From a virus: a DNA stretch of 41,426 nt. Position numbers and translations under genes: made by a program. Of the stretch, positions 17,112 through 38,842 are shown piece by piece; the stretch's first letter is position 1, and every line of letters starts with the position of its first letter. A model generated the notes under the pieces. That model saw only the letters and a list, made by a program, of their open reading frames with translations, was not told the DNA's origin and searched no databases. The stretch spans positions 1 to 41,426 of IMG/VR virus record IMGVR_UViG_3300028914_000024; one strand, 5' to 3'.

Positions 17112-17188
17112 TTTAAATCTACCTCCTTAAAAAATTGTTAAAGAACATATATAAAGATGGGCATAATTCCTCCTCTTTATATGACTAT

Positions 17189-17375: not shown

Positions 17376-17376
17376 A

Positions 17377-18209: not shown

Positions 18210-18210
18210 T

Positions 18211-18393: not shown

Positions 18394-18854
18394 TAAATCC
18401 TACTTATGCTAAATGTGGCATTAGTTATAATTGCTTGTGTAGTTGCTATTGGTGTTGTTGGGTCAGTTGGGGTTGGTACACTTGATACACTTTGAACTGA
18501 TATATTAGTTGTTCCTCTAGGACAGACCCTTAACTTTTTATCAAATGAAATAGTTTCGTAATCATCCGCTGTCGCAATAGTAACTGCACGAATTGTGTCA
18601 GGTATTAACACTCCATCTTGATACAAACCTATTGCCACTACACCAGCAGTTGCTGAAGAAACTGATGCACTAAATTCTACATCATAATAGCCTGTGTATC
18701 CATTACCAAATATTTTAAAGTTGGGGTTACCACTTGAGTAATCTAGCCATCCATTACAAGTAGCACATCTTGTTCTTATATCAGTTTCATCAAAAGTTAT
18801 TGGACTTGCATTACTTGGCAATACCAATGGTTCATTTATAATTGTTTCTATCAT
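18393..18854 (-). CDS. TNF/C1q-like jelly-roll protein (BclA C-terminal / ExsF-like pattern)
   Basis: Alternating beta pattern GYYDVEFSASVSS...VAIGLYQDGVLIPDT...NISVQ...ITNATFSISRI resembles exosporium BclA-C/BxpB-type domains. Inference. Confidence 0.4.
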   Translation of the reverse strand: MIETIINEPLVLPSNASPITFDETDIRTRCATCNGWLDYSSGNPNFKIFGNGYTGYYDVEFSASVSSATAGVVAIGLYQDGVLIPDTIRAVTIATADDYETISFDKKLRVCPRGTTNISVQSVSSVPTPTDPTTPIATTQAIITNATFSISRI

Positions 18855-18976
18855 TCTATCTTTCTCCTCTCATAATAAATAAAGAGATAGAACTATGCCT
18901 ATCTCTCGTTTCCCCTATAAAGGGTTTTTGTTAGCAAGTTCTCGTCTTCGAGTATGTAGTATTCTACTCTATGCTA

Positions 18977-19798
18977 TTAAATAAATTGACTTGTAGTGTT
19001 CATTCCACAACCGCATCCACCATTGCAAGTGAAGATAGGTATTCTTCCATAGACTGGTGTGCTTGGAACTGGGCAATTAGAAAGTCTGTTATACAATGCA
19101 TCTACTTCAGCCTCTTGACCCGCTCTTAATTGTGCAGTCTGTTGAATTTGACTAGCCTGTAAATCTTTCATTAAGATTTCTCTTTGTAAATCACCAATTT
19201 TTTCATTTTTTGCATCAATCTTGTCTTGGCATAATTGGTCTAATATTCTTTGAGTTGATGCAGTTTGGCTTGAAATAATATCTCTAATTCCATTGCTTAA
19301 AGCCTCTCTATCAGCACAATTTTCGCTTATTACTGTTGATGTTAGATTAGCTAATCCTAATCTATTTTCACAACAACAATTTAAAAATGATGTATTTAAA
19401 CCATAAAAACCATCTTTAATGCTGTCATTTAATGTGTATGTTGAATTACATAATTGGCTTGATAAAGAATTTATGCCATTTGTAACATCTTGAATATCAT
19501 TGCTTAATTGTAAAGCATTAAAACCTGCATTTGTGTTTTGCATAATTTCTTTTTGCCCATTAGATAACCAAGCATAATCATTATTAAAGCCATTATTGAA
19601 GAAACCACCATTTCCATTGTTTCCCCAACCACCAAATAGTGCAAACAATAAAATTATCCAAATCCAATCACCACCATAACCAAAACCACTATTACCATAT
19701 CCTCCCATCATTGGCATAACTGGGTATGGATAAGCAAAACCATTGTTGCCATTTGTGGTTGCTAATTCTACTGTTGGTTGTATTCCGTTTCCGTTCAT
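18977..19798 (-). CDS. Membrane-anchored Gly/Asn-rich, coiled-coil, Cys-rich protein
   Basis: G/N/Y-rich N-terminus, one TM helix (WIWIILLFALFGGW), a coiled-coil, and Cys clusters (NCCCENR, CNGGCGCG). ATG at 19798 follows AAAGGAGGTGA. Confidence 0.65.
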   Translation of the reverse strand: MNGNGIQPTVELATTNGNNGFAYPYPVMPMMGGYGNSGFGYGGDWIWIILLFALFGGWGNNGNGGFFNNGFNNDYAWLSNGQKEIMQNTNAGFNALQLSNDIQDVTNGINSLSSQLCNSTYTLNDSIKDGFYGLNTSFLNCCCENRLGLANLTSTVISENCADREALSNGIRDIISSQTASTQRILDQLCQDKIDAKNEKIGDLQREILMKDLQASQIQQTAQLRAGQEAEVDALYNRLSNCPVPSTPVYGRIPIFTCNGGCGCGMNTTSQFI

Positions 19799-19830
19799 TA
19801 TCTCACCTCCTTTCATCCTCTATATCAACT

Positions 19831-20076
19831 CTATTTTGAGTTAATATTATTATTAAACATTTGCATCATTTGTTGCCATTGTTGTTTTTGTTGTGGGTTA
19901 AAATTGTTTATAGTTTCATTTAATAAGTCATTAGGGTTATTATTTTTTCTAGCATCTTGATATTTTTTATATGCTTGAGGATTTGTTCTTTTTAGCTGTT
20001 GTTCTAATTGTGTCATCATTTGTTGTGGTATTTGTTGCATCTTGTTTTGCATCAGCATTTGTAACATCTGCATCAT
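19831..20076 (-). CDS. Gln/Met/Asn-rich small protein
   Basis: 81-aa ORF with an AAAGGAA RBS. Overlaps the 3' end of 19967..20464 by 110 nt in the +1 frame. Confidence 0.5.
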   Translation of the reverse strand: MMQMLQMLMQNKMQQIPQQMMTQLEQQLKRTNPQAYKKYQDARKNNNPNDLLNETINNFNPQQKQQWQQMMQMFNNNINSK

Positions 20077-20464
20077 TTTTTATCATTCCTTTCAGTTCTT
20101 CAATTTGCGATTGTAAGTATTGTATTTGTAAATCTTTGCTATCAAGTGGCACTATTTCTTTTAATTCATAAGTTTTAATAGTGCCTTTAGTATTTTTAAT
20201 CCATAATACTGACATATCTTTACTAAAGAATGGGGTATCACCATATATTATTTCTTTGCTAACATCATCAATGGTGTTTGCATATCTCATTGTGTTTGTT
20301 CCGTTTGGTGCAAGTTGGAATGTTTGATTAATAGCGGGTTGTTGATTATTTTTAAATTGTTCTTTCATTTGATTTAGTTGTGCTATTTGATTGTCAATTC
20401 TATCATTTATGCTTTGTTGATTAAAATTTGAATTATAAGTATTCATATATGGATTGTTATACAT
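19967..20464 (-). CDS. Asn/Gln-rich protein with a globular central domain
   Basis: 165-aa ORF with AGGAGGT RBS. The N-terminal 60 aa are N/Q-rich. Confidence 0.65.
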   Translation of the reverse strand: MYNNPYMNTYNSNFNQQSINDRIDNQIAQLNQMKEQFKNNQQPAINQTFQLAPNGTNTMRYANTIDDVSKEIIYGDTPFFSKDMSVLWIKNTKGTIKTYELKEIVPLDSKDLQIQYLQSQIEELKGMIKNDADVTNADAKQDATNTTTNDDTIRTTAKKNKSSSI

Positions 20465-20581
20465 ATTTACCTCCTAAAAGAAAAGAGAGTGTAGTAATAG
20501 TGTTTTAAACTAAATACTTAACTCTCCTTTCTAATTTAAGTATAGATTTTATTATTAATTTAAAAATGCAATAAAAAAGCA

Positions 20582-20815
20582 TCACAATAAAAGTAATGCT
20601 TTCCAAGTTTGCATAAATACATAATCCGCAAAAATATCTTTTAGCTTTCTTATTTCATAGCCGATAGTTCTTTGACTAACACCTATTTCCATAGCTATTT
20701 TTACTATGCTATCTTTATTTATTAACATATTAATTATTCTAATTTGTTCATCCGTAAGTGATACATTCCTTATAAAGTCGTCATATATTGCTTTGATTTT
20801 TAATTTCTCAACCAT
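20582..20815 (-). CDS. Small sigma-70 region-4 / LuxR-like HTH regulator
   Basis: LTDEQIRIINMLINKDSIVKIAMEIGVSQRTIGYEIRKLKD. ATG at 20815 follows GAGGTGG (the ORF track extends to 20833). Confidence 0.6.
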   Translation of the reverse strand: MVEKLKIKAIYDDFIRNVSLTDEQIRIINMLINKDSIVKIAMEIGVSQRTIGYEIRKLKDIFADYVFMQTWKALLLL

Positions 20816-20874
20816 TCCCCCACCTCGTTGCAATATATTACACTATATTTAATAAGATAGAATGCAAACTTTAG

Positions 20875-20914
20875 GCAAATAATAGCAAATAATAGCAAAT
20901 AATGGCAATTTGGC
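20875..20914. repeat. Tandem 10-bp repeats (gcaaataata x3 plus a degenerate copy)
   Basis: ggcaaataat agcaaataat agcaaataat ggcaatttggc read directly, lying between the two HTH genes. Confidence 0.9.
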
Positions 20915-20916
20915 AT

Positions 20917-21138
20917 TTAAAAAAAATACTTGCTAATCTTGTTATAAATTTCTTGCTTTCTATTAGTAATTGTTCTCATAGAATACCCCGTTTTTATCAT
21001 AATGCCCTTTAATGGTTCACCTTGTAAACATAAATCCAGGATTGTTTTTTCTTTTCGGCTTTCTCTTAGGATGCCTTTTTTTATTATAAAGTCGTATGTT
21101 TCTTTAGGCATATCAAAGTAATAATGTGGTTTTTTCAT
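20917..21138 (-). CDS. Small sigma-70 region-4-like HTH regulator
   Basis: KEKTILDLCLQGEPLKGIMIKTGYSMRTITNRKQEIYNKI. Own consensus promoter upstream. Confidence 0.55.
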   Translation of the reverse strand: MKKPHYYFDMPKETYDFIIKKGILRESRKEKTILDLCLQGEPLKGIMIKTGYSMRTITNRKQEIYNKISKYFF

Positions 21139-21163
21139 ATAATACCCCCTTAATTGGCTATGT

Positions 21164-21192
21164 ATTATATAATAAGATTTTAATTAATGCAA
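21164..21192 (-). promoter_or_regulatory. Sigma-A-type promoter
   Basis: Minus strand TTGCAT-17 nt-TATAAT. Confidence 0.7.
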
Positions 21193-21193
21193 C

Positions 21194-21215
21194 AAAAAAA
21201 GTGCTATTTAGCACT
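21194..21215 (-). terminator. Intrinsic terminator
   Basis: Minus strand AGUGCU-AAAU-AGCACU followed by U7. The stop codon of 21204..21431 lies in the loop. Confidence 0.65.
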
Positions 21216-21431
21216 CTTTACCTCTTTTAGTTCACTTTCTATCAATGATATGCTTTTTTCAGCTTTATACATCCTATCAATCAAGTTATTATGCTCGTGA
21301 ACCTTTTTATCTAGTTCGTCTATTCTATAGATAACTAAATCGTTGTTTCTTTTATTGCTTGATATAGTAGCTAACACAGATGGTATTGCTACACATAAAC
21401 CACTTATAATGGCTGTCCAAATTCCTTGCAT
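21204..21431 (-). CDS. BhlA/UviB-family holin-like protein
   Basis: N-terminal TM helix QGIWTAIISGLCVAIPSVLATI followed by a coiled-coil, as in BhlA/UviB. Confidence 0.6.
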   Translation of the reverse strand: MQGIWTAIISGLCVAIPSVLATISSNKRNNDLVIYRIDELDKKVHEHNNLIDRMYKAEKSISLIESELKEVKSAK

Positions 21432-21492
21432 ATAACCCTCCTCATACTCTTACATTGTAATTATATCACTAAATAGAAAAAAAGACAAATCG

Positions 21493-21795
21493 TTATTGTC
21501 TTTTATTTAATTCTTCTAATATTTGATTTATTTTTTCTTTTAATACTTTAAAATTGTAATTAATTTTATGATATGTAACTGTTTTACTATCAATAGTAGT
21601 TACATCAAACAATTCATCATCAGGTATGATAGGCAAACATTCATCTTCTAACTCTAAATTTAGGTTTTCTTTGTCCACTATATATCTATTAAAAAATTCT
21701 TTAATAGTACAAAAATCATTTTTTGAGAATAAATATTTTATTTCCTCATCAACTTCATCATTTGCTATTTTATTTAATAAATCAATTACTTTCAT
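21493..21795 (-). CDS. Hypothetical protein (paralog of 36269..36646 at the N-terminus)
   Basis: MKVIDLLNKIANDE versus MEVIDLLNKIANGE. The first ~40 nt of the two genes are nearly identical. Confidence 0.65.
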   Translation of the reverse strand: MKVIDLLNKIANDEVDEEIKYLFSKNDFCTIKEFFNRYIVDKENLNLELEDECLPIIPDDELFDVTTIDSKTVTYHKINYNFKVLKEKINQILEELNKRQ

Positions 21796-21946
21796 ATAAT
21801 TCCTCCAATAAATTAATTAAATCTTTATAAGCTGATACCTTACTTACATATCTTTTTTTGCCTCGTTGTCTATCTTCTATTTCAGCTTTTATTTTTAACT
21901 CATACAACTTGTCAATTGCATATTCTACTAATCGTATGTTGTCCAT
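21782..21946 (-). CDS. Hypothetical small protein (54 aa, below ORF-track cutoff)
   Basis: Hand translation MDNIRLVEYAIDKLYELKIKAEIEDRQRGKKRYVSKVSAYKDLINLLEELYESN. GGAGAGGT RBS. Fills an otherwise empty gap. Confidence 0.45.
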   Translation of the reverse strand: MDNIRLVEYAIDKLYELKIKAEIEDRQRGKKRYVSKVSAYKDLINLLEELYESN

Positions 21947-22122
21947 CTTTTACCTCTCCATAATCTTAATTTTTTATTCATTTGAGCTTTAAAATATGCT
22001 TTGTCATCTAATACTTTACCACATAAATGACACACACCAGATTTTTTTACATAATAATCGTGATTTTGATAACCACATACATCACATTTTATGTTCTTTA
22101 ATTCTACCATTTTCTTTTTCAT
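21928..22122 (-). CDS. Zinc-ribbon protein
   Basis: CDVCGYQ...CHLCGK (CxxC...CxxC). Confidence 0.6.
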   Translation of the reverse strand: MKKKMVELKNIKCDVCGYQNHDYYVKKSGVCHLCGKVLDDKAYFKAQMNKKLRLWRGKRWTTYD

Positions 22123-22261
22123 ACTTCATCTCCTTATATGCTAGTACATAATCAAGTTGCTTTTGTGTCATATGAAATAGTCTATTAATATACATCGTTA
22201 AAGTATATTTTCTGCCATATTCTTTAAGCATCTTTTTTAGTTCTTTATTTTTTATTATCAT
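22082..22261 (-). CDS. Hypothetical small protein (59 aa, below ORF-track cutoff)
   Basis: Hand translation MIIKNKELKKMLKEYGRKYTLTMYINRLFHMTQKQLDYVLAYKEMKYEKENGRIKEHKM. AAGGGAG RBS. Confidence 0.4.
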   Translation of the reverse strand: MIIKNKELKKMLKEYGRKYTLTMYINRLFHMTQKQLDYVLAYKEMKYEKENGRIKEHKM

Positions 22262-22547
22262 CGTTGCACTCCCTTAAATCAACGCAACGCAAATCCCCAC
22301 ACCCACATTTTGGGCAATTACTTGTAATAGAATAACTTTTACCATCTTGCCATTCATAACCGCATTCCATACAAGTATAATAATACCTTTTTTCTATAAT
22401 AATTTTGTCATATTCAACACGAATATTTATTTCATCATCATCATCAATTTCAGCTTCTTGCACTATTCTTTTTGGTATATGTGCAGTATAACAATTAATT
22501 CTTTTTTCATTATTTGCTATATATATTTGTTTACTTAATTTTGGCAT
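22245..22547 (-). CDS. AbrB/SpoVT-like domain fused to a zinc ribbon
   Basis: IPKRIVQEAEI...INIRVEYDKIIIEK swapped-hairpin-like N-terminus. C-terminal CMECG...CPKCGC. Confidence 0.5.
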   Translation of the reverse strand: MPKLSKQIYIANNEKRINCYTAHIPKRIVQEAEIDDDDEINIRVEYDKIIIEKRYYYTCMECGYEWQDGKSYSITSNCPKCGCGDLRCVDLRECNDDNKK

Positions 22548-23059
22548 TTTTCTTTCTCCTTTTCTTTGACTTTGTAATATAATCTAGCACTCAGTATAGC
22601 AGTTTTAGTAATCATACCATCATTAGATAACAAACTTTTGTTTTTTATACAATTATACTCTGGTGTTGATACTGCCATTAAATTGTCAATGTCAAAGTTT
22701 GTTCTATCACCATCCAAAAATATAACCATTGTTCCTTTAGGCAATTTTACATTATGATATTGCTCGTAAATATGCCTTTGTTTGTATTCCCATTTGTTTG
22801 GTGTGACTTTAACCAATACCATATTGTCTGGCTTAACGTATTCAGTTCCAATTGGTATTCTATTGCCCATTGCTTTTGCTTTATTAGGGTTATAATCTTT
22901 ATATCTTATTTGTCTTTTTTGCAAGTATTCTCGTAACATTTCTTTTGTAATTTGATAGTTATATTTGTTTTTGGCAATATCTAGCAATTTGTCTATTGTA
23001 TTACTAGACCCTTTTTTATACATTTCTTTTTCAAATTCTTTTGAATACTTATTTCTCAT
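22535..23059 (-). CDS. Free-standing HNH homing endonuclease (HNH_3-like)
   Basis: KWEYKQRHIYEQYHNVKLPKGTMVIFLDGDRTNFDIDNLMAV matches the HNH_3 pattern (H...DGD..N...NL). Confidence 0.65.
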   Translation of the reverse strand: MRNKYSKEFEKEMYKKGSSNTIDKLLDIAKNKYNYQITKEMLREYLQKRQIRYKDYNPNKAKAMGNRIPIGTEYVKPDNMVLVKVTPNKWEYKQRHIYEQYHNVKLPKGTMVIFLDGDRTNFDIDNLMAVSTPEYNCIKNKSLLSNDGMITKTAILSARLYYKVKEKEKEKCQN

Positions 23060-24076: not shown

Positions 24077-25336
24077 TTATTTTTTGATTGCAACCCTTTT
24101 ATAACCACTTACTCTTAATCTATCTTTTTTTTCTAATAAGCCACTTGCTTTTGATAGTTCTTTGTATTTATGATTTAGTATTGTTATCTTTTGTTGGCTT
24201 TCGCCTATAAGCATCTCATTATTACTTGCTCTTGCTAATATTTGAGTATCCTTTTGTTCTCGTATAGCTCTTTCTATTTGTCTTTGTAATTGAGTACCCT
24301 CATACATTGTATAATGTTTGCCCTCATAATCAAAGCCTTTATTGTTTCTATTTATTATTTCTTTTAGTTCCTCGTTTGAATATTCTGGCTTACTTATTCC
24401 TAAGACAATAGCAAATGTATAGTGATAACAATTATATTGGCTTATACTTCTTCTATCGTGTCCATCATAATTTGCATCAAACTCAACACCATCATAGCTG
24501 ACAGCTTTTTCATCACTTTGGAATTTTTCAAACTCACCTTTTTTAATTAATTTGCCATCCGCATCATATTGATTGGTGCTAAATTGTTTACCTTGTACAT
24601 CCTGGTGGTCAGGTGCAGGGTTTTCGTGTACTGTTATTTCAACACCATCCGCATCAAACTCTTTGCCTATTATTGTTTGTGTTTCATTGTGCAAAGTTCT
24701 TATAGCATCTTTCATATGCATTCTAACCGCACTATCAAGCCTCATTGTTCTTCCATTCTCATAAACAACCTTTAGACCCGTTCCCATTTGTTTTAACTGT
24801 CTAAACATTGCACTATCAAATGTTTCTTTACCTTGCCCTACATTTAATATTGCCTCGTCTAAAAGCTCGTTATATGCATCTTTTAAGCCTTTAAATGTGA
24901 CCTCTTTTGTCTTTTTATCTGCCATACCAAAGCCAATCATATCACTTCTTGCCATTTCTATGTATTTTTTTGCGGTGGCGGATGATATTGCGTCTATTTG
25001 ACTTTTCAATGCAAAATTTTGCTCGTATGGTATAAATTTTTTGCCTCTAAAGTCATAAAATTGCTTAGCAAACTCATAATCGTGCTTTGCAACCTCATCA
25101 AAAATTTTCTTAATATCTCTTACATTCAGCTTTGTTATTTCAGCAAGTTTTTTTATTATCTTGTCATAGTCACCACCATATTTTAGTATTTGCACTAATT
25201 CTTGAGCTTTGCTAGGTGTAAGAGTACCAAGTTTTTTGATACTCTTACCTATTTGCTCTAAAACATACTCGTTGCCTTGCTCTATTCTATTAACAAGCCT
25301 TTCAATTACTTTTTCAATAACCTCGTCAGATAACAT
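24077..25336 (-). CDS. Minor capsid / head morphogenesis protein (Phage_min_cap2 / SPP1 gp7-like)
   Basis: SISQYNCYHYTFAIVLGISKPEYS...GKHYTMYEGTQLQRQIERAIREQK is typical of this family. Confidence 0.7.
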   Translation of the reverse strand: MLSDEVIEKVIERLVNRIEQGNEYVLEQIGKSIKKLGTLTPSKAQELVQILKYGGDYDKIIKKLAEITKLNVRDIKKIFDEVAKHDYEFAKQFYDFRGKKFIPYEQNFALKSQIDAISSATAKKYIEMARSDMIGFGMADKKTKEVTFKGLKDAYNELLDEAILNVGQGKETFDSAMFRQLKQMGTGLKVVYENGRTMRLDSAVRMHMKDAIRTLHNETQTIIGKEFDADGVEITVHENPAPDHQDVQGKQFSTNQYDADGKLIKKGEFEKFQSDEKAVSYDGVEFDANYDGHDRRSISQYNCYHYTFAIVLGISKPEYSNEELKEIINRNNKGFDYEGKHYTMYEGTQLQRQIERAIREQKDTQILARASNNEMLIGESQQKITILNHKYKELSKASGLLEKKDRLRVSGYKRVAIKK

Positions 25337-25347: not shown

Positions 25348-25971
25348 CTATACATCTTGGCCTTTTGTAAAATCATTTCCCTCACTTGTATAAAATACGT
25401 TATTTACTATATCATACATTCCTACTTTATTATCACTTTTTCTATAACAAGGTATAAAATCTCTAATAAGCACATCATTGTTATCATAAATTTTACAAGA
25501 ATACATATTACCATTGAAAGCCTCTCCTGAACTCATACCATTTGTTGATAAAAGATAGCATCTATAATTATTTAATGAATAAGTATATGTTCCTTGTCCA
25601 TATAAAGTGCCATTTACTTTTATATAGTTATCACCAGACGTTGTACTTGCTTCTATTTTATATCTTGTATTTGTTTGAATATAAAGACCTGTCCATATAT
25701 CTTCTTTTGCACCTAAGCCGAATTGAAAACCTCCATTATCAAAACAAGCAAGATGTGAACGTGTAATAGGATAACTGAAATCAACTGCACCTATTATATA
25801 TTGTGTTGATAATTCATTAAATGATATATCTAATTCAAACTTATACCCATCTGTTATATCAAACCCTGTATTAATATAACCATATCTTACACCAGTTATA
25901 TATTCAACCTCTTGATATTCACTAGGCAATCTTGAACTTAGTGTACTTAAAAGGCTTCTAAATAAACTCAT
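25348..25971 (-). CDS. Fibre-tip / lectin-like protein (ConA-like fold suspected)
   Basis: LPSEYQEVEYI start and C-terminal IRDFIPCYRKSDNKVGMYDIVNNVFYTSEGNDF recur in gut phage fibre proteins. Inference. Confidence 0.5.
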   Translation of the reverse strand: MSLFRSLLSTLSSRLPSEYQEVEYITGVRYGYINTGFDITDGYKFELDISFNELSTQYIIGAVDFSYPITRSHLACFDNGGFQFGLGAKEDIWTGLYIQTNTRYKIEASTTSGDNYIKVNGTLYGQGTYTYSLNNYRCYLLSTNGMSSGEAFNGNMYSCKIYDNNDVLIRDFIPCYRKSDNKVGMYDIVNNVFYTSEGNDFTKGQDV

Positions 25972-25982
25972 ATTTCACCTTC

Positions 25983-26441
25983 TTAATATTTTTTCCATAT
26001 TGCAATATCATTTAATATTGAAATCATATAGTTTTTACTTGCAACACACGTTCCTGTACTTACCCCACCACTTGTTGTTAATGTTGGTGCATCACCTAAA
26101 TTAGTCAATGAACTAGGTATACTTACACTTGTTGCAGTTGAACCACTTTCAAAATAAATCATACTTTCTATATCAAATGTTGTTGTTGCAGTTATTGTTA
26201 ATGATGTTATTTCACCTAATTTATATGACTTGTTTCCTGTTAAACTAGCTATTGTATATGTTGAACTGCTATTTGTAATAACCTCAGGGCTATCCCCATC
26301 ATAAACTTGTGCCGTTGTTGTTCCATTCTTGTCAGTAATTGTTATCGTTGACACGTTGCTATTTTTAGTAACAGTTGCAGTTGGGCTATACCCCGCACTA
26401 CCCAAGCCACTTATTATTGTATTACCTTTTCTTAAACTCAT
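25983..26441 (-). CDS. Small fibre-like protein sharing the ITITDKNGTTTA module
   Basis: SPTATVTKNSNVSTITITDKNGTTTAQVYDG parallels two segments of 27257..28756. Confidence 0.55.
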   Translation of the reverse strand: MSLRKGNTIISGLGSAGYSPTATVTKNSNVSTITITDKNGTTTAQVYDGDSPEVITNSSSTYTIASLTGNKSYKLGEITSLTITATTTFDIESMIYFESGSTATSVSIPSSLTNLGDAPTLTTSGGVSTGTCVASKNYMISILNDIAIWKKY

Positions 26442-26450
26442 AATATCCTC

Positions 26451-27263
26451 CTAATTAAAATATTTTGCTAAGTCAACATTATAATTGTATGCCACTTCGT
26501 CAGCCGACAAATCTCTATTATATATTAAAAAGTTATGTATTGTTCCGTTAAATGTTCTATCACTTGGTGCATATTCTGGTGGATTTGCTTGTAAATAAGC
26601 ATTCCCAATTGTAAAATACATACTACTATTTAAACTACCGCTGAATGTATTTCTGTCATATACTTGTTGACCATCTATATATAAAATCATTCTTGATGTT
26701 GACATTATAACTAAAGTTAAATTATGTTGTGAGTTATCACTAGCCCAATCGGAGGTTGATATTGTTCTGCCTGAGCCACCTAACCAACCCGCACTTGAAC
26801 TTGAACCCTCGTATTGTACTAAGAAACCCGCACTGCCAATTCCGTGATTACCAAACAAGCCCATATAATTACCACCTGTTTTTACTGTGTATGTGCAACT
26901 TATCGTAACAGGCATATCGCTAAATAAATCGGTCATTTTTTTATCATTAACTGTTACGACACCATTATACGAATAATATAGTCTAAATTTTAGCCCGTTA
27001 GTTGTCCAACCTGAGTTATCACCAGTGCCATTAGAAAAGTTATACATTTTACCAACATTGTTATTTCCACTTAAGTCAGCCCACTCTGTTGCGGATGTAC
27101 TATAACCATTTCCTGTATTATCTATTCCACTATAATAAACTATTAATCCATCAGTAATATAATCATTGCCCTTTGGTTGCCATAATGTAACACCATTTCT
27201 TTCTATTTTTTTAACTGTTCCCTCAGGTATTGTAATACTTTTCACGTTAGAAAAATCTACCAT
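26451..27263 (-). CDS. LamG / concanavalin-A-like lectin domain protein
   Basis: FNGTIHNFLIYNRDLSADEVAYNY is the classic Laminin_G_3 C-terminal signature. Confidence 0.75.
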   Translation of the reverse strand: MVDFSNVKSITIPEGTVKKIERNGVTLWQPKGNDYITDGLIVYYSGIDNTGNGYSTSATEWADLSGNNNVGKMYNFSNGTGDNSGWTTNGLKFRLYYSYNGVVTVNDKKMTDLFSDMPVTISCTYTVKTGGNYMGLFGNHGIGSAGFLVQYEGSSSSAGWLGGSGRTISTSDWASDNSQHNLTLVIMSTSRMILYIDGQQVYDRNTFSGSLNSSMYFTIGNAYLQANPPEYAPSDRTFNGTIHNFLIYNRDLSADEVAYNYNVDLAKYFN

Positions 27264-28756
27264 AATACAACTTCCTTATCAACAGTAGTGTCATCATCCA
27301 ACGTAAATGTCCAAGTTTCGTGTGAAAAACTATGTTGACTTACCCATTCTGTGTCAAAATCACTATTACTAGCTTTTGCTAACACTTGACCCGTTGTTCC
27401 TGCACTTGGCAATCCATTGTTGCTATAATCATCAGTTATATTATAGAAAGTATCGGCATCCTTATTTTGTATTGCATTGTATTCGCTTAGTGTACCACTC
27501 CAAAACTTGTCTAAATTTGTTGTTTTTACATCTTTAACGCCAGTCATAAATTGAGTTTTGTTATACTCTATTTTTTGAAATGTTGTTACGCCTGTTGATG
27601 TAAATACATTGTTTTCCCACGTTCCATTTATTCTAAATGTAACTAAATATAGCGTATTACCATTAAAACTATATCCATCAAAAAGATACATTCTATCTTG
27701 ATTTGTTAATGGACTTTCATTACTCATAATAAATGTGTAATTGTAATTTGTTTTTAATAATACAATAGCATTTTTTATTTGTTTACCATAATAATAGTTT
27801 ATTAAATCAGTTGCACTTTCTTTTATTGCGTCTGTGGTATAATTTTCGTTATTATATGAAAATGTTGTTGGTATTTCAAATCTATATACTTGGTGTTGGT
27901 CTGTATCTACATATTGTTTTGTTGCATAATTACTTAAATCACCACCAACTGCACTTATAACATTATTTTCTATTGTTATGTTTTCTCCTGCTGTATATTG
28001 AACGTAACCATCTCTACCATCAGTTCCGTTAGTACCATTGATACCATCACTAACAATTGCGGTTGTGGTTCCGTTTTTATCGGTGATAGTTATTGTTGAT
28101 GTACTGCCACTTTTAGTTACTGTTGCAATTGGGCTTACCCCATCAACTCCGTCAATACCATTTCTTCCGTCAACTCCGTCCTTCCCGTCAACTCCATCTC
28201 TTCCGTCTCTTCCGTTTGTTCCATTCGTTCCATCTAAAACTTGTACCTCTTTTGATGTTCCACTTTTGTCCGTAATTGTAATAGTCGTTGTTGTTCCAAC
28301 TTTATTTGCATCTATATCTAAATTATTGACCTCATTTAAAGCTGTATCTATGTCATCTAATTTGCCATTAACCTCGTTTAAACCTTCTTGTAATTGCAAT
28401 TCGTATTGTTCTAATTCGCTTGGTGTTATTGGTTGACTATTTTCGGCATCTTTTAATGAACCTTCTAGTGTTGTAAAGTAACCAGGTTTAGGGTTGTATC
28501 TTTGAGTTGAATTAAATGCAACTACACCTAATTCAATTTCACCAGGTTCGGTTAATACTTCACTAGGTATTTCACATTGATTATTTATTATGATTTGTTT
28601 GTATGTGTCTCCTTTTAAAGTAAAATATGCCTCTTTTGTAAATGTTGCATCAAAGTCATCACTAAATTCAAAATCAACAGTTGTTACATTTATTTCTTGC
28701 TCATTTACTGGTGTATTAATTACTTGTATTGTATGCGGTTTAACTATTACTTTCAT
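27257..28756 (-). CDS. BppU-like fibre protein with collagen-like Gly-X-Y repeats
   Basis: N-terminal Ig-like BppU-type region, GTNGTNGRDGRDGVDGKDGVDGRNGIDGVDGVS collagen run, and a second GINGTNGTDGRDG run. Confidence 0.75.
   Translation of the reverse strand: MKVIVKPHTIQVINTPVNEQEINVTTVDFEFSDDFDATFTKEAYFTLKGDTYKQIIINNQCEIPSEVLTEPGEIELGVVAFNSTQRYNPKPGYFTTLEGSLKDAENSQPITPSELEQYELQLQEGLNEVNGKLDDIDTALNEVNNLDIDANKVGTTTTITITDKSGTSKEVQVLDGTNGTNGRDGRDGVDGKDGVDGRNGIDGVDGVSPIATVTKSGSTSTITITDKNGTTTAIVSDGINGTNGTDGRDGYVQYTAGENITIENNVISAVGGDLSNYATKQYVDTDQHQVYRFEIPTTFSYNNENYTTDAIKESATDLINYYYGKQIKNAIVLLKTNYNYTFIMSNESPLTNQDRMYLFDGYSFNGNTLYLVTFRINGTWENNVFTSTGVTTFQKIEYNKTQFMTGVKDVKTTNLDKFWSGTLSEYNAIQNKDADTFYNITDDYSNNGLPSAGTTGQVLAKASNSDFDTEWVSQHSFSHETWTFTLDDDTTVDKEVVLW
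28133..28231 (-). repeat. Collagen-like Gly-X-Y run (11 triplets) within 27257..28756
   Basis: gga-nnn-nnn periodicity read on the minus strand. It generates the mirror-image Pro/Ser-rich plus-strand ORF 28038..28436. Confidence 0.9.
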
Positions 28757-30240
28757 TATTTATCACCATCCTTTTTTTCTTCTTTTGGCTTTTCCTCGTC
28801 TTGTTCTTTTTTTCTATCGTTAGTTCCTAGTAAATCCTCTACATTAGGTTCGGCATCATCAATTTCTTGTATTTTCTTTTTAGCAATTTCTTCAGTTTCA
28901 CCAAATACTTTCATTCTATATTCAACCTTACTTAGTAAACCTGCACTTACTTCCCTCATTGCTCTATTACTTTCAGCTTCTTTATCTTCTATAATACTAT
29001 CATCAAATTGTATCACCATATCTTCATCGCTTATGTTATACTTACCAAATTCGCTTGATGCATAGCATATAGCTCTTACTAAATCATAGATTGCACTTTC
29101 ATAGCCTATCTCTAGTTTTTTCTTTCTTCTAAATAGTTTGCTATTACTTGATACAACTGCTGTTGCAGTGCTTAGATTTGTACCATCAAAATGATAGTGA
29201 TTTTCACCAAAGCCAACTTTATTGCCTAGTATGTTTAAGGCAGTGTTTAATGTGCTTATTTGTTTATCGGTTCTTAAATCGTCACTTTCACTTTGAATTA
29301 AATCGTCTTTTGTTGCACCTTTAGGCAATTGATAAATAGATGTATCCTCAGGGTCAAATACCATTCTTTGTTGCCCTTCATCATAGTTAAACATTTCAGC
29401 TCTTGCAAATATTCTTCTTTTACCATCTTTTACTTCAGTTTTTAATGCATCAAATACAATGTCAACTGTCTTTAAATTATCAATAGCATTTGCATAATGT
29501 GGTATTCCAAAAGGATTGTTATTAAACAAGTTATTTGTTAATAGTGGCTTAAATATACTAAACCATTTTATATCTGACTTAGTGTCAAAATCATCAACTG
29601 TGTTTTCTTTTTCTTTTATCTCGGTTAATAACCCGTTAGTGTCTTTAAATAAATGATTGTATATGTGATAGTTTCCGTCATCGGCTAATTTGTGAACCGC
29701 AAGTATTACATACTTTTCACCTTTTACATATTCAACCGAACCAAAAGCACATTCTGTTATTTCTTTATTGTTCCAACTTAGCGGATAAATCCAATCTATA
29801 TCAACAACATCAACTCTTGTTTTTGCCTCCGATACATCTAAATACATTCCATCTTGGTTTTCTATAATGTCATATACACTAACAACAACAGCTTCAGTTC
29901 CTAATGCACCTGACTTTTCTATTGATTGATTAATTACTGAGTATAAGTCTAAGCTATCTATTAGTTCGTCAAACTCATCTTGTGATTTATCATCCTTCAT
30001 TGATATTTTGCATTTTTCACTCCATAATATGTCTGACCAATCTTCACTAATTTCTTTTGCCATATTCATTGTATATCTATGTTGATTGACTTTCTTTTTA
30101 CCATTATAGATAAAATAATTATGAAATGACTTAACATTGCCTTGATACCAACTTTTCCATTGTTCAATGTAAGTTCTTAAATCATTTTTAGCATTTGGAT
30201 TGTAATTATAATTTATTTGTAAAAAATCTTCTAATTTCAT
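28756..30240 (-). CDS. Portal protein (SPP1 gp6-like)
   Basis: 494 aa. Downstream of TerL. RYTMNMAKEISEDWSDILWSEK motif and an acidic C-terminus. Confidence 0.85.
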   Translation of the reverse strand: MKLEDFLQINYNYNPNAKNDLRTYIEQWKSWYQGNVKSFHNYFIYNGKKKVNQHRYTMNMAKEISEDWSDILWSEKCKISMKDDKSQDEFDELIDSLDLYSVINQSIEKSGALGTEAVVVSVYDIIENQDGMYLDVSEAKTRVDVVDIDWIYPLSWNNKEITECAFGSVEYVKGEKYVILAVHKLADDGNYHIYNHLFKDTNGLLTEIKEKENTVDDFDTKSDIKWFSIFKPLLTNNLFNNNPFGIPHYANAIDNLKTVDIVFDALKTEVKDGKRRIFARAEMFNYDEGQQRMVFDPEDTSIYQLPKGATKDDLIQSESDDLRTDKQISTLNTALNILGNKVGFGENHYHFDGTNLSTATAVVSSNSKLFRRKKKLEIGYESAIYDLVRAICYASSEFGKYNISDEDMVIQFDDSIIEDKEAESNRAMREVSAGLLSKVEYRMKVFGETEEIAKKKIQEIDDAEPNVEDLLGTNDRKKEQDEEKPKEEKKDGDK

Positions 30241-30254: not shown

Positions 30255-30821
30255 TTATTTAACAATTTTTATTTGGTCTTTTTTAAAAGCAATTATTTCA
30301 ACAATATCATCTTTTTTTATTTTTTCTATACTAACTGATTTAGTTTTATAATTATAATATTTGTGTTCAGGCATATCTTCGTTTGCTATGCGTATAATTC
30401 CATCATATTGATTAATTTTGCCACTAGCATTTAATTTATTTAGTGTTGTATTATCGTTTGTTTTTAAATATAATGGTTTTTTAATGTTTAAATATACTTC
30501 TTTTATATTTCCCTTTTCACCAGCATAATATCCTGCAACACTATCTTTTCTTTCTGGTGGGGCAAAATAAAATCCCCTTGTGCCATCTGACCTTTGCCTT
30601 ATAAACTTTTCATCAAATTCCTCAAAATTTGTTGATGTTCCGTGATAAACTTTTATTAAATTGCCATTTTTATCTCTTATTTTACTGTCTTCAAATCCTT
30701 TTGGTTCTTTTGTTTTATTTTTATTTGTCTTTTGTCTAATAAAAGCATCCATAGGATTTTGCCCTTCTTTGACAAAAACGTGTGTGCCATTTATTGTTAC
30801 CCAATGTCCATCTTCTTGCAT
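30255..30821 (-). CDS. Putative ADP-ribosyltransferase-fold protein with N-terminal WxTIxGxxVFV motif
   Basis: GHWVTINGTHVFVKEGQ, then VYHGTSTNFEEFD ... RGFYFAP ... IKEVYL (H-Y-E-like spacing). ATG at 30821 follows GGAGGT. Confidence 0.45.
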   Translation of the reverse strand: MQEDGHWVTINGTHVFVKEGQNPMDAFIRQKTNKNKTKEPKGFEDSKIRDKNGNLIKVYHGTSTNFEEFDEKFIRQRSDGTRGFYFAPPERKDSVAGYYAGEKGNIKEVYLNIKKPLYLKTNDNTTLNKLNASGKINQYDGIIRIANEDMPEHKYYNYKTKSVSIEKIKKDDIVEIIAFKKDQIKIVK

Positions 30822-30822
30822 C

Positions 30823-32106
30823 TCAATAACCTCCATTTATATTCTGCATTAATTTGTCATAAAAAGGAAACATACTATATTCACTAGCATCCAAGTCATC
30901 AACGGGTGTTGTTCCATCGTCAAGTCGTTCATCTTCGTGTTTATCATCCCATAGAGCTTGACTATATGCCTCTATTAGATATTTGCATTTCCTAAGGATA
31001 AATCTCCGTTGTTGACCAAATAAATGGCAATCTAGCTCAATTCTATCAACTATCCTTCCTTTGATACAATCATCTACTAGCAAGGGTATTCCTTTTTCTT
31101 GTAAGTATTTATTCATACCATATGTTAGCACTTGACCTAAAGCACCATAGTCCGCAAAGCAATGTGTTACTTTCCCGTATGTGTTCATTACCCTTTTGTA
31201 AAACTCAACAAATTTTTTATACATTTCCTCAGGAGAATGTAACCCTGTCAGCTTTTCCTCATCTATTGTCCATACTTGTTTAAATAGTGGAGTTATTCCC
31301 GTTGCTTTAAATTCGGTTTCACCTTCAGTTGCACCATAGTCAATGCCAATTGATATAATCATAAAATTTAACTTATTCCCGTATTCATCAACCGCCTCAT
31401 CTCTTATGTATAAACTAGGATTGTCCGCAAATTGTCTATATATTATACCTTCAGCATTTTTCCATTGTCCTAGTATTAACCTATCATAATAAACTGTTCC
31501 TGCATATTCTTTGCATAGATTGTCAACAAATTCCTTTGGCAAAAAAGGGTTATCAAATATAGTGTAGTGTTGTACATAGACATCAAGTTGTTTTTCTTCA
31601 ACTTTATCTAAGAAATTAGCTTTTAGCCAATGTGATTGGTTCTCTGGGTTTAATGCACCATCAAAGCACGAATATGGCTTGTCTAATGAACCTTGTATCA
31701 TTACAAATACTTCTTCATTCCATTTAGCAACCTCATCACCATATGCATATTTGATTGATGTACCTTGTATTTTGCTTACTTGATTTACTTTTTCACAACC
31801 TAAACAATAGACAACCTCACCAAATAGTTTTGCAGTATTATCACTGCCTATTGTACCAACTAAATTTTTACCATATATTTGCCTTAGTGGTTGCAATACA
31901 TTTCGTTCTATTGTTCCTTTAGATACACCAAAAATACAATATAGACCATCTAAGCCTTTTCTTTCTATTATTCTTTTAGGTATTACATATAAATTATCAA
32001 GGTATGTTTTACCACATCTTCTTGCACCTACTTTGATATTATATCTATGATGAGCATTTTTAATAAATTCTTTTTGCTTATCACTTAGTATCATTTCGTG
32101 CCTCAT
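30823..32106 (-). CDS. terL: Terminase large subunit
   Basis: Walker A VGARRCGKTY, Walker B-like YGDEVAKW, and a C-terminal nuclease region. The start may be the ATG at 32094. Confidence 0.9.
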   Translation of the reverse strand: MRHEMILSDKQKEFIKNAHHRYNIKVGARRCGKTYLDNLYVIPKRIIERKGLDGLYCIFGVSKGTIERNVLQPLRQIYGKNLVGTIGSDNTAKLFGEVVYCLGCEKVNQVSKIQGTSIKYAYGDEVAKWNEEVFVMIQGSLDKPYSCFDGALNPENQSHWLKANFLDKVEEKQLDVYVQHYTIFDNPFLPKEFVDNLCKEYAGTVYYDRLILGQWKNAEGIIYRQFADNPSLYIRDEAVDEYGNKLNFMIISIGIDYGATEGETEFKATGITPLFKQVWTIDEEKLTGLHSPEEMYKKFVEFYKRVMNTYGKVTHCFADYGALGQVLTYGMNKYLQEKGIPLLVDDCIKGRIVDRIELDCHLFGQQRRFILRKCKYLIEAYSQALWDDKHEDERLDDGTTPVDDLDASEYSMFPFYDKLMQNINGGY

Positions 32107-32458
32107 TTTCTATCTTAGACAATAGCTCTTGAACCTTAGATATTTCGTTAGGATTTGTCGGTATCTCAATCTTTTCTCTCCACTCGTTTTTCTTTCTATT
32201 TTTAAGCCAAAATATTTGTGCGGTTACATTACCACTTAAAGCATTTAATAATAAGGCGTTTTCAACTTGATAGTCAACAACATCTCTGCCATCTTTTAGG
32301 GCATTACTTATATTACTGTGTTTATTTTTCCATTCGTAAAGTGTTTTAACATTAATTCCAATATTGTTTGCTATTTGTTCGTTAGTAAGCCCATCTCTAG
32401 CCCATCCTTGTAGCAATATAAGTTTATCATCAGTTAGCCATTCATCTATCTTAGCCAC
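32081..32458 (-). CDS. terS: Terminase small subunit (HTH type), GTG start
   Basis: GLTNEQIANNIGINVKTLYEWKNKH HTH and AQIFWLKNRKKNEWREK, immediately upstream of and overlapping terL. Confidence 0.8.
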   Translation of the reverse strand: MAKIDEWLTDDKLILLQGWARDGLTNEQIANNIGINVKTLYEWKNKHSNISNALKDGRDVVDYQVENALLLNALSGNVTAQIFWLKNRKKNEWREKIEIPTNPNEISKVQELLSKIENEARNDTK

Positions 32459-36758: not shown

Positions 36759-36941
36759 TTAGTAATCTCGTTCATCTTCATTTTTTAAAAACTCGTAATG
36801 TTCCTCTAAAATCTCGTAATCATCACATAATTCTTCAAATGCTCTATAAAATTCATCTAGTGTTATAAAATCTTTGTTATTAAAATATCTTTCAGCAACC
36901 CATTTTGCCATATCTTCGGTTCTAATATAAACTTCATCCAT
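36759..36941 (-). CDS. Small highly acidic protein
   Basis: 60 aa, 20 of them Asp/Glu. Coupled to the annealase gene (ATGA... overlap at 36941). Confidence 0.55.
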   Translation of the reverse strand: MDEVYIRTEDMAKWVAERYFNNKDFITLDEFYRAFEELCDDYEILEEHYEFLKNEDERDY

Positions 36942-37651
36942 TATTGTAACCTCTTATCTAAAAGTTCTATTGCCTCTTTAACTTGTTCATAAGTCATATT
37001 GTCATCACTATCGGCATTAAAATATTTATAAAATTTTTCTCTATCAAATTTGTCGTCTTTTTCTTCGTTAGCAACTATCATTTTTTTCATAGTTTCCGTT
37101 AGCTTAGTTAATTCCTTGTCTTTTTCTTTTGATAGTTGGCTAAATCTAATATGGTTTTTGTTATCACGAATAATTAAGTCTTTTATGTTGTCTTTTTCGT
37201 CATAGTCAATTATTTCTACCCAAAAGTATGTTTTAGTTGTATATTTGCCTTTGTCATTTTCAAAAAACTCTGGTTTATCTTTTACTCCCATATCTTTTCT
37301 AGGAAATGTAATAATACTAGGGCTTGAATAAAGTTCTCTACCTATGCCCCAATTAACACAGGCTCTTTTAAAACTATCACTTGCTAAGCCTTTTTCTTCT
37401 TCAGCAAAACTTTCTTTTCCTGTATCTTCTTTTGTTATCCATTGTGACTTTTCAGCATCCCAAATTGATACAATGCAATTTGCATTATCTCTTGTATGCT
37501 CTCTTTTCCAATTCATTGCCCCTACTGTCTCGTCTAGGATGTTCATATCGCATCTTGCATCTTTGTACAACAACATCGTGCAATAATTACTTGCTATTTG
37601 ATTAATTCTTACATCAATCTCATCAGCTCTTAAATTTCTAAACATTTTCAT
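36941..37651 (-). CDS. Rad52/Sak-type single-strand annealing protein
   Basis: LLYKDARCDMNILDETVGAMNWKRE...KGLASDSFKRACVNWGIGRELY is the Rad52-type SSAP signature. Confidence 0.75.
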   Translation of the reverse strand: MKMFRNLRADEIDVRINQIASNYCTMLLYKDARCDMNILDETVGAMNWKREHTRDNANCIVSIWDAEKSQWITKEDTGKESFAEEEKGLASDSFKRACVNWGIGRELYSSPSIITFPRKDMGVKDKPEFFENDKGKYTTKTYFWVEIIDYDEKDNIKDLIIRDNKNHIRFSQLSKEKDKELTKLTETMKKMIVANEEKDDKFDREKFYKYFNADSDDNMTYEQVKEAIELLDKRLQ

Positions 37652-37654: not shown

Positions 37655-38842
37655 TTAATCTACCTCCTCAATGTCAAATATAGAAAATTGTTTTTGTTTT
37701 TGACCGCTTTTTTTATTAAAGCTAATCCCATCCAATTTATGTTTCATACTACAACCATCACACATAAAATGATTGTAACGCCCACAATAACTGTCAACAT
37801 AATCTTTAAACTTAGTCACTTTTTTAATTCTTAAATCACCATTGACACAATTAGCTACATTAGTTTGTGGCAACCAAATCTTTTCATCATCCGCTATTTT
37901 TTTATTGCCTAAATGCTCGGTTGTAAAATATGTTAAATTGTATTTTAAATAATTATCAAAGTTTTCGTTTATTGTATCAACACCACAACAACACCTTGAT
38001 TGGCTTAAATAATGTAAGTCATTATCACCAACACCAACTAAAGTTTTATCTAAATGCTTTTTTAATATTTCAATGTTTCTCGTTTTTGTTTGTACATCTA
38101 ATTCTAAGTTCCGCATAATTGATGTTCTTTTATATTTGTAAATTTCATCTTTAAATAATTCTTTTATTGTTGGATTGTCGGTATTGATTTTCAAATGTTC
38201 AATTGTAACATAACTGGCAATGCCATTTATTGTATCACACAACTCTATAGCTTTGTCAAGGTCTATTACAGGCTGTATTCTTATGCTACACCAAAAACCT
38301 TTTGACCTTAATTCTTTTAAAAAGTTTATTCTTTGAGTTGCGGTTGGGCTATTATCCTCGTACTTTTTTACCCACTCATCATCTTTACCAATTAAACTTA
38401 TTTGGAAACAATGAATGCTAGGGTCTAATATTTCCCAATATTCATTAGGCAAATAACATTGCTTAGTTGAAAATATCAATGGATAATTATACTTGTTGCT
38501 TAACTCAATTAATTTGTAATTTAATTTCAGTTTAAATTCTATAGGCTGAAAAGGGTCGGCTAACCCACCACAATGTATAGGTACTCTATGTCTTAATAAT
38601 TCAATAACAATGTTTGATGTTTTCTCGTTTGTTTCAAATGCCTTATAAAATAAATCTTTAATAATTTCAAATCGTGCATATGAATATTCAAAATCTTCTT
38701 GACCACCTATATGCCTTGCAAAACAATATTTACATCCAAAACTACAAAACTTATAAAAGTCTAGTCTAAATGGGTTACCACAAAATCTAAATTGACTGCT
38801 TAAAGCTAATGGGCTTTTATAATCGTCTTTAAGTTCTTTCAC
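37655..38842 (-). CDS. Radical SAM enzyme (SplB / COG1533 DNA-repair-photolyase-like architecture)
   Basis: CxxxCxxC at residues 33-40 (CSFGCKYC, nt 38723..38746), followed by FARH. Downstream GGLADPFQP and TIM-barrel-like periodicity. Extra C-terminal Cys clusters (CCCG, CDGC). Confidence 0.75.
   Translation of the reverse strand: MKELKDDYKSPLALSSQFRFCGNPFRLDFYKFCSFGCKYCFARHIGGQEDFEYSYARFEIIKDLFYKAFETNEKTSNIVIELLRHRVPIHCGGLADPFQPIEFKLKLNYKLIELSNKYNYPLIFSTKQCYLPNEYWEILDPSIHCFQISLIGKDDEWVKKYEDNSPTATQRINFLKELRSKGFWCSIRIQPVIDLDKAIELCDTINGIASYVTIEHLKINTDNPTIKELFKDEIYKYKRTSIMRNLELDVQTKTRNIEILKKHLDKTLVGVGDNDLHYLSQSRCCCGVDTINENFDNYLKYNLTYFTTEHLGNKKIADDEKIWLPQTNVANCVNGDLRIKKVTKFKDYVDSYCGRYNHFMCDGCSMKHKLDGISFNKKSGQKQKQFSIFDIEEVD

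Follow-up and report, generated by a model that had tools for sequence, protein, structure and literature searches.

What does a gene for a putative ADP-ribosyltransferase (ART) do between the terminase and portal genes of a phage, and why does its product share its N-terminus with a second, larger protein? The question is raised by the virus record IMGVR_UViG_3300028914_000024 of IMG/VR, whose 41,426 nucleotides (41.4 kb, 29.6% G+C) were analysed as one stretch, hereafter the window. The window is phage-like, and nearly every gene lies on the minus strand. The ART gene stands in the order terminase small subunit (TerS), terminase large subunit (TerL), ART gene, SPP1-type portal; the second protein, of 483 residues, is encoded by an open reading frame (ORF) at 13222..14673. 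Both proteins begin with a module of about 35 residues, called the tag below, and we give slightly better than even chances to the reading that both are head cargo, directed by the tag and destined for injection into the host.

The initial annotation had noticed a motif common to the two N-termini, and this motif is, to judge from profile searches, a real homologous module. BLASTP between the two N-termini gave 11 identities in 23 positions (E 4e-7). Moreover, hidden Markov models (HMMs) built from outside tags, with no window sequence included, were searched against 735 six-frame segments of the window and connected the two subtypes in both directions. The HMM from 116 outside tags of type B (the kind on the 483-residue protein) found the ART protein (E 4.1e-7), and that from five outside tags of type A (the kind on the ART protein) found ORF 13222..14673 (E 7.8e-15), the next best segment having E >0.8. 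Chance resemblance of the two N-termini was ruled out by these cross-subtype searches. Exactly two copies of the tag are present in the window. The hairpin of the tag follows the pattern G-x-W-x-T-I-x-G-x-x-V-F-I-K-[DE]-G, with the consensus G[HR]W[VI]T[IM]NG[TA]HVF[VI]K[DE]GQ[NS]PMDAFI[RK]QK for type A and GGVWRT[VI]GGRR[IV]FIKDGQDLASAMKESGKF for type B, and the type-A tag is made up of an acidic patch, the beta-hairpin, a helix and a Lys-rich linker. AlphaFold2 (AF2) predicts both copies as a two-stranded beta-hairpin followed by a helix of about 10 residues: strands 5-10 and 13-18 and helix 23-32 in type A (residue numbers of the ART protein follow its 188-residue form throughout), and strands 8-13 and 16-21 and helix 26-35 in type B, the latter with a predicted local distance difference test (pLDDT) score of about 80 in a model from 76 sequences.

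The module is widespread and portable. A HMMER search of 1.84e9 representative proteins with a nine-sequence profile detected it in 1,615 clusters at E<=1e-3 and in 526 at E<=1e-10, from several bacterial phyla distant from one another; protein-level counts rest on the best 150 of the 1,615 clusters. In 138 of the 157 proteins examined the tag begins no later than residue 15. The tags keep about 85-95% identity between proteins with less than 50% identity elsewhere, and the cargo beyond the tag and the Lys-rich linker, compared in 128 proteins, forms at least 67 BLAST clusters, of which 57 have a single member. About 80% of the tagged proteins have no Pfam domain, and the cargo matches that do occur are of conflict-type enzymes (ART-PolyVal in eight, ADPrib_exo_Tox in five, and GNAT, Rho_N and LPD29). 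Among 14 distinct type-B tags the mean identity is 65% at the nucleotide level and 71% at the amino acid level, and 2,548 codon comparisons gave 968 synonymous versus 730 non-synonymous codon differences; purifying selection acts on the tag peptide, not on the DNA. Pfam, PHROGs and NCBIfam contain nothing that matches the tag, a search of solved-structure sequences found nothing significant, and the public names of tagged proteins in the sources searched say nothing beyond 'hypothetical protein'. Term searches found no description of the tag in the literature covered, PMC5512222, PMC5576092 and PMC9503650 included. The portable tag thus appears to be undescribed so far.

Some chromosomal proteins from non-phage settings also end in a hairpin like that of the tag, NGHWVTMNGAHVFIED(K); they were seen in the metagenome-assembled genomes RUG10694, RUG12268 and the 'Cyanobacteria' UBA2855. 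One of these proteins is a GH108 muramidase encoded beside an LprI lysozyme-inhibitor gene and another is a DUF6973 protein, and the hairpins number two to three per genome, each after a conserved 'RIFK.N' stretch; about 15 chance matches to the pattern are expected in a collection of that size. They may mark the effectors of some other delivery system, or have arisen by convergence.

The initial annotation took the junction of TerL and portal to be normally tight; in this phage lineage it is a recurrent cargo slot. Three relatives (L001, L005 and L007), with TerL 51-89% and portal 75-85% identical to those of the window, carry there a gene whose tag is 71-88% identical to that of the ART protein and whose cargo has no significant BLAST match to it (best E >1). 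The cargo of L001 is an ADPrib_exo_Tox domain, that is, an ART of the R-S-E class in the Alt/VIP2 superfamily, and those of L005 and L007 are small domains of unknown kind. These comparisons show cargo swapped behind a constant tag in a fixed slot. Stand-alone type-A genes fill the TerL-portal slot of the window, L001, L005, L007 and L051. The stand-alone type-B genes occupy a slot just after the gene for MuF2, the name used here for Phage_min_cap2 after PMC5576092, or just before the genes for scaffold and major capsid protein (MCP), in the window, L002-L004, L018, L020-25, L027, L030, L032-34, L036 and L053/54, several of these loci being near-identical relatives from one sample, which makes the independent lineages fewer than the loci. 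A few tagged genes lie instead upstream of the terminase genes (L013, L016 and L031) and are exceptions to the two slots. The same slots in relatives also hold mini-ORFs of 35-80 residues that consist of the tag only. In L051 (4001-4521), found on four contigs, TerL is followed by a tag-only ORF of 52 residues, an ART-PolyVal fragment of 71 residues and the portal gene, and this slot content is apparently a decayed copy of the ART gene of the window. In L053 (4001-4132) and L054, from human-gut samples, a tag of 43 residues stands between MuF2 and scaffold (MuF2-..-[43-aa tag]-scaffold). Such mini-ORFs are either remnants, or the tag has a role independent of cargo.

In large proteins the tag is internal, often repeated, and stands shortly C-terminal to portal domains of several Pfam families. 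P0032, encoded between TerL and a MuF gene, has a Phage_portal domain at 84-351, tags at 464 and 624, ART-PolyVal at 654-787 and a further tag at 826. The tag follows Portal_Mu in L014 and L028, Phage_portal_3 in L017 and, by a weak match below the Pfam cut-off, Phage_portal_2 in L011; in L010 it stands at residue 566 before ADPrib_exo_Tox (635-784), with no portal domain detected in the N-terminal part. Similarly, it is C-terminal to Phage_Mu_F in the giant polyvalent proteins P0010, P0012, P0014, P0015, P0017, P0041 and P0076 and in L029, and tag-bearing polyvalent proteins of this MuF type carry Acb1, zeta-toxin and ART domains. The tag directly precedes an effector, either ADPrib_exo_Tox (as in P0014, with the tag at 1973-2001 and the domain at 2029-2213), ART-PolyVal or a PD-(D/E)xK-like domain (P0010 and P0012), often as [tag-effector]n. 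The grammar is thus [portal or MuF anchor]-[tag-effector]n, and in the window each [tag-effector] unit has a gene of its own. All portal fusions observed have W[VI]T tags, which are type-A-like, and the MuF proteins mostly VWRT but also W[VI]T. As a separate observation, the MuF domain of L029 (81-2219) and P0014 is interrupted, upstream of the tag-effector unit, by inserts like Hint/inteins and DUF559 endonucleases.

With regard to the ART gene itself, an ORF of about 190 residues had been claimed in the TerL-portal gap and is indeed there (30255..30836, minus strand, 193 residues), with every string quoted from it. Its start had been misassigned: the gene almost certainly begins at the second ATG (30821) and encodes 188 residues with the N-terminus MQEDGHWVTING, because GGAGG precedes this ATG with a spacer of 8 nt and the N-termini of homologues agree (P0004, P0008 and P0009 start at the equivalent residue). 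The TerL stop codon TGA is at 30823..30825, one nucleotide from the ATG, and there is no overlap with TerL. The position of the Shine-Dalgarno (SD) sequence inside the last TerL codons suggests translational coupling of the ART gene to TerL. The portal gene has its own SD, AAAGGAG, and starts 14 nt past the ART stop, which places the ART gene within the late packaging operon. In the public JGI call (P0001, 165 residues; 30255..30752) the protein begins at the internal Met of MDAFIRQ and has lost the tag; automated annotation will systematically miss the tag module wherever internal Met residues occur. A nucleotide search with the TerS-portal block found no close phage, only distant Clostridia-type terminase matches.

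The proposal of an ART domain was right at the family level, and the guessed likeness to DUF3990 appears as a weak, sub-threshold Pfam match. ART-PolyVal (PF18760) matches at about 76 bits (75.9-76) against a gathering cut-off of 31.2 (E 6.3e-21, model positions 1-132 of 140), and because of this score we accept the ART protein as a member of the ART-PolyVal family, with a presumed enzymatic activity. Its match in PHROGs falls in the central part of a profile of giant proteins that has 1,664 positions, and its nearest relatives in cultured phages are gp60 of F116 and proteins of Dickeya jumbo phages. Of the H-Y-E signature proposed initially, the His and Tyr stand as His60 and Tyr85, and the Glu of NIKEVYL does not, being Ser in P0004. 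Residues Y110, N112 and P116 (YLNIKKP) are likewise invariant in the seven-sequence alignment. By analogy, the Glu175 of VEIIAF is more likely the catalytic acid than the Glu of NIKEVYL; it sits on a late strand predicted by AF2 (173-178), which may resemble the 'NEYIVY' strand of PARP. The family has been described with His in strand 1, Tyr in strand 2 and Asp in strand 5, within the Tox-ART-HYD2 clade (Iyer et al. 2017, PMC5512222), so that the acid is Asp in the description and Glu in our candidate. A profile of the seven sequences searched against solved structures had the catalytic domains of PARP12 and PARP10 as weak top matches (E ~0.2-0.3), in which YHGT pairs with LFHGT/LYHGT and GxGFYFA with YGKG[SV]YFA. 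Sequence and fold searches together point weakly but consistently to PARP catalytic domains.

The second tagged protein had been placed by implication outside the head module, which is wrong: it lies in the MuF2-to-scaffold slot, with scaffold and MCP about 1.9 kb downstream, ORFs of 66-71 residues following it and an accessory block of 9.4 kb separating it from MuF2. Its conserved tag (1-40) is followed by a coiled-coil region; the middle (40-320) varies, the C-terminal domain (~345-483) is conserved, and the 313 detected homologues cover the protein in a mosaic manner. The AF2 model (mean pLDDT 81) has the hairpin-helix tag, long helices at 46-210, an alpha/beta domain at 216-306 and a helical domain at 357-478. 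No match was found in Pfam, PHROG or NCBIfam for the sequence and no significant fold match in the PDB for the model. In BFVD the model had only marginal hits (E 3e-3 to 3e-2), some on small phage proteins that are uncharacterised and others on domains within polyvalent-like proteins. By its architecture the protein is a mosaic, putatively a mini-polyvalent cargo. Its C-terminal tail of about 25 residues, YKKYLKEHPGSDMSFSDFKDM, is 50-75% identical in tagged proteins with unrelated middles, which means that proteins of this slot are conserved at both ends.

What had been proposed as a leader shared by two proteins is thus a portable module that is widespread on unrelated cargo, behind which cargo is swapped and which is fused to portal and MuF proteins. 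The further proposal of a capsid-targeting or ejection signal is supported, though not proved, by the distribution of the module; the packaging itself is a step that we infer, as are the docking partner, the ejection, the enzymatic activity and the target. We propose that the 188-residue protein is an accessory effector of the phage head, with an H-Y-(E/D) ART at its C-terminus and the tag of about 35 residues at its N-terminus. Its gene would be expressed in the late operon along with those of TerL and portal, and during procapsid assembly the tag would tie the protein to the portal/MuF vertex complex; the effector genes being separate from those of MuF2 and portal in the window, any such attachment must be non-covalent. 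The ART would then be enclosed in the capsid, expelled together with the DNA, and may modify a host target early in infection, such as a component of defence, transcription or translation, by analogy with T4 Alt. The 483-residue protein with its type-B tag would be a second cargo of the same system, and other phages may reach the same end with [tag-effector] units fused to the C-terminus of portal or MuF. A broader claim, that the module is a general capsid-loading and ejection tag of portal/MuF tailed phages, working both in cis (fused) and in trans (on free cargo), is more tentative, and we put it somewhat below even.

Several points weigh against these readings. The leader-only mini-ORFs and the decayed ART in the same slots show that cargo is dispensable. 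Tags also occur inside proteins that are already covalently anchored to portal or MuF, where docking seems redundant unless the protein is processed. The idea that type A strictly goes with portal and type B with MuF was rejected; it holds in the portal fusions observed and in the stand-alone slots, but the MuF polyvalent proteins mix both, and the pairing is only a trend. The hairpin on chromosomal, non-phage proteins suggests that capsids may not be the only setting in which the motif is used. A tblastn search of both tags and the consensus against 50,697 cultured or deposited phage records detected no carrier, only noise in tape-measure genes. As for the enzyme, only analogy identifies the third catalytic residue, AF2 models the ART protein poorly (pLDDT 61.5 from the seven-sequence alignment), and the top 20 Foldseek matches of this model in the PDB, all of them PARP1/2 catalytic domains, are non-significant (E ~0.03-0.1, template modelling score ~0.28).

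In the main rival the tag is a junction or processing element, either a hinge or an (auto)proteolytic release site, left over or serving as a propeptide on the stand-alone genes. In the fusions the tag always lies at anchor-effector or effector-effector boundaries, after a conserved acidic stretch, an effector attached to a 12-mer portal could be injected only after its release, and processing of polyvalent proteins has been proposed by Iyer et al. (PMC5512222). Nevertheless, we regard this explanation as unlikely: the stand-alone tags at extreme N-termini are under strong purifying selection, whereas a relic would decay; Pfam detected no prohead protease among the scanned portal-to-MCP genes, where the scaffold is a separate gene as in SPP1-like phages; and no likeness of the tag to known self-cleaving modules was seen, the Hint domains, if present, being separate.

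It is slightly less probable again that the proteins are not packaged and that the tag is an address in the host cytoplasm, recognized by nucleic acid, ribosome, RNA polymerase or a chaperone, in which case the genes would be late morons like T4 ModA/ModB. The type-B tag is basic (R/K-rich), and its predicted hairpin and helix could bind nucleic acid; the C-terminal hairpin on chromosomal GH108 muramidase and DUF6973 proteins would also fit. On the other hand, the cargo has very different substrates (protein ARTs, the cyclic-nucleotide phosphodiesterase Acb1, zeta kinase, nuclease-like domains and GNAT), which makes a single host address unlikely, in many phages fusion behind portal or MuF locates the module within the capsid, and the genes are confined to head-assembly slots.

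We consider it improbable that the loci are polymorphic-toxin cassettes for bacterial competition, similar to MuF toxins, in which the tag is a constant trafficking part and the toxin gets to neighbouring cells by particles or lysis instead of aiding infection of the phage's own host. A constant N-terminal part followed by hypervariable toxin-like C-termini (ARTs, nuclease-like, zeta) is what such cassettes would look like, and MuF toxins have been described in temperate Firmicutes phages (PMC5576092). But in the TerL-portal slot of the window, L001 and L005 the tagged gene has no ORF of immunity size behind it, the portal beginning 14-39 nt downstream; several co-occurring domains are counter-defence enzymes (Acb1), not toxins; and no integrase was seen in the window, though the search was not exhaustive. 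Finally, a DNA-level recombination handle with a functionless peptide would account for the exchange of cargo exactly behind the tag in close relatives, but it is very improbable, since 65% nucleotide identity is too low, 38% of the codon comparisons differ synonymously while the peptide is kept, and the module persists across distant phyla and internally in fusions.

Table 1. Positions of the genes, domains, residues and signals discussed; coordinates are those of the window unless another locus is named.
Feature	Coordinates	Strand	Remarks
Tagged ADP-ribosyltransferase gene	30255..30821	-	188 aa from second ATG; long ORF extends to 30836
Type-A tag	30714..30821	-	aa 1-36 of ART protein: MQEDGHWVTINGTHVFVKEGQNPMDAFIRQKTNKNK; profile match E 8e-24
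ART-PolyVal catalytic domain	30264..30674	-	aa 50-186; Pfam PF18760
His60 (YHGT)	30642..30644	-	invariant in ART protein and six homologues
Tyr85 (GFYF)	30567..30569	-	invariant in ART protein and six homologues
Candidate Glu175 (VEIIAF)	30297..30299	-	kept in 6/7 sequences
Shine-Dalgarno GGAGG	30830..30834	-	within last TerL codons; 8 nt 5' of ATG 30821
Terminase large subunit (TerL)	30823..32106	-	Pfam Terminase_6N/Terminase_3, PHROG 2; directly upstream of ART gene
Terminase small subunit (TerS)	32081..32458	-	PHROG 309 E 2.5e-44
SPP1-type portal	28756..30240	-	Pfam SPP1_portal E 4e-15; PHROG 533 E 2e-90
Second tagged protein, 483 aa	13222..14673	-	ORF with strong SD
Type-B tag	14563..14673	-	aa 1-37 of 483-aa protein: MAKDDIGGVWRTIGGRKVFIKDGQDLASAMKESGKFK; profile match E 7e-21
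Conserved C-terminal domain of 483-aa protein	13225..13641	-	~aa 345-483; near-invariant columns
C-terminal tail of 483-aa protein	13225..13310		
MuF-superfamily minor capsid protein (Phage_min_cap2, 'MuF2')	24077..25336	-	Pfam E 9e-49
Scaffolding protein	10867..11349	-	Pfam Phage_scaffold E 1e-11; downstream bound of type-B slot
Major capsid protein (HK97 fold family)	9926..10846	-	Pfam Phage_capsid E 9e-25
Portal-to-MuF2 gap	25348..28756		
Fibre/lectin-like gene	27257..28756		collagen/CFSR/Phage_tail_C
Fibre/lectin-like gene	26451..27263		LamG
Fibre/lectin-like ORF	25983..26441		
Fibre/lectin-like ORF	25348..25971		
Accessory block	14734..23059		
HNH endonuclease	22535..23059		
GT4 glycosyltransferase	14818..15999		
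DXD-type glycosyltransferase	15996..16619		
tRNA-Trp(CCA)	14734..14807		
Radical-SAM protein	37655..38842		
Rad52-like annealing protein	36941..37651		
C-terminal hairpin loci (chromosomal)	L042-L047		e.g. L043:4344-5057, L046:4197-5054

The surroundings of the two slots showed further features (Table 1). The accessory block holds an HNH endonuclease, two glycosyltransferases (GT4 and DXD-type) and many small ORFs with no Pfam match, and a tRNA-Trp(CCA) lies just upstream of the 483-residue gene. In the portal-to-MuF2 gap, four fibre- or lectin-like genes follow the portal instead of a MuF-like gene, and the relatives L005 and L002 have DUF285 or unknown genes there; the head module seems to have its second variable slot in this gap. 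The early/replication region encodes a Rad52-like annealing protein and a radical-SAM protein, the latter by a match below the Pfam cut-off.

If the tag acts as we propose, it would be a sequence handle on injected phage proteins in at least 1,600 protein clusters, and the roughly four fifths of the sampled tagged proteins that lack a known domain would be candidates for injected counter-defence or host-takeover effectors. To our knowledge, how proteins are selected for encapsidation is known for only a few model phages, namely the capsid-targeting sequence (CTS) of T4, DarB of P1 and the binding of gp7 to the portal in SPP1. A tag that can be detected in sequence would make such selection testable in a large group of uncultured phages, make injected effectors predictable and flag hundreds of domain families of unknown function as candidates for anti-defence or takeover proteins that act early. 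As a portable peptide it might also be used to bring proteins of choice into phage heads, for the engineering of protein delivery, and its C-terminal copies at the GH108/LprI and DUF6973 loci on chromosomes would make it part of a non-phage delivery system too. The ART of the window adds a stand-alone member to the ART-PolyVal family, which, as far as we know, has consisted mainly of giant polyvalent proteins; we know of no member with a known target.

Head-packaged ARTs are not new to the literature: ARTs encoded beside terminase or portal genes have been proposed to be packaged in the head (PMC9503650; PMC5512222), effectors fused to MuF or portal have been published (PMC5512222, PMC9503650, PMC5576092), and the ART here is a stand-alone member of a known family. 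It resembles the polyvalent ART-PolyVal proteins of phages and plasmids in the catalytic domain, the conserved His and Tyr, and the phage origin near packaging genes. Polyvalent proteins are encoded with portal-terminase or with conjugation genes, and the former neighbourhood is found here as well, as TerS-TerL-[ART]-portal and as MuF2 ... [483 aa] ... scaffold-MCP. Polyvalent proteins have 2-15 domains, whereas the ART protein is a solo protein of 188 residues with one catalytic domain and the tag; the 483-residue protein has several modules like them but no recognised enzymatic domain. The ART-PolyVal protein gp60 of the cultured phage F116 has no tag.

MuF toxins (Jamet et al. 2017, PMC5576092) are similar in that variable effectors, ARTs and nucleases among them, are encoded in the head module, and the tag is found in MuF and portal fusions between anchor and effector. 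They carry an N-terminal MuF domain, whereas neither tagged protein of the window matches MuF/min_cap2 and MuF2 is a separate gene, and they have a small downstream immunity ORF, which is absent after the ART gene. The payloads of extracellular contractile injection systems and Photorhabdus virulence cassettes (PMC9054023, PMC6748792) also bear an N-terminal leader of about 50 residues that directs the loading of diverse toxins. That machine is a tail-like particle without capsid or portal, and the likeness is a functional analogy only.

The closest parallel in idea is the capsid targeting of T4 and P1, where a short N-terminal peptide is enough to load unrelated proteins, as is proposed here for the tag. 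The N-terminal 30 residues of P1 DarB suffice to send a reporter to the capsid, and darB adjoins the portal gene (PMC9024508); a capsid-targeting sequence of T4 IPIII is cited in the same paper. Residues 6-10 of DarB are reported to be needed for capsid localisation (PMC9024508), and its residues 7-10 read GVFR (L055:17120-17236), matching GV[W/F]R of the type-B tag. Homology to the DarB peptide was rejected, and this likeness is probably a coincidence because the tag HMMs score below 0 bits on it. The CTS of T4 is cleaved by a prohead protease, of which Pfam detected none among the scanned portal-to-MCP genes here, and T4 Alt is a packaged ART of the R-S-E clade, whereas the ART of the window is of the H-Y class. 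Moreover, the signals of T4 and P1 are lineage-specific, while the tag described here occurs in more than 1,600 protein clusters from several bacterial phyla.

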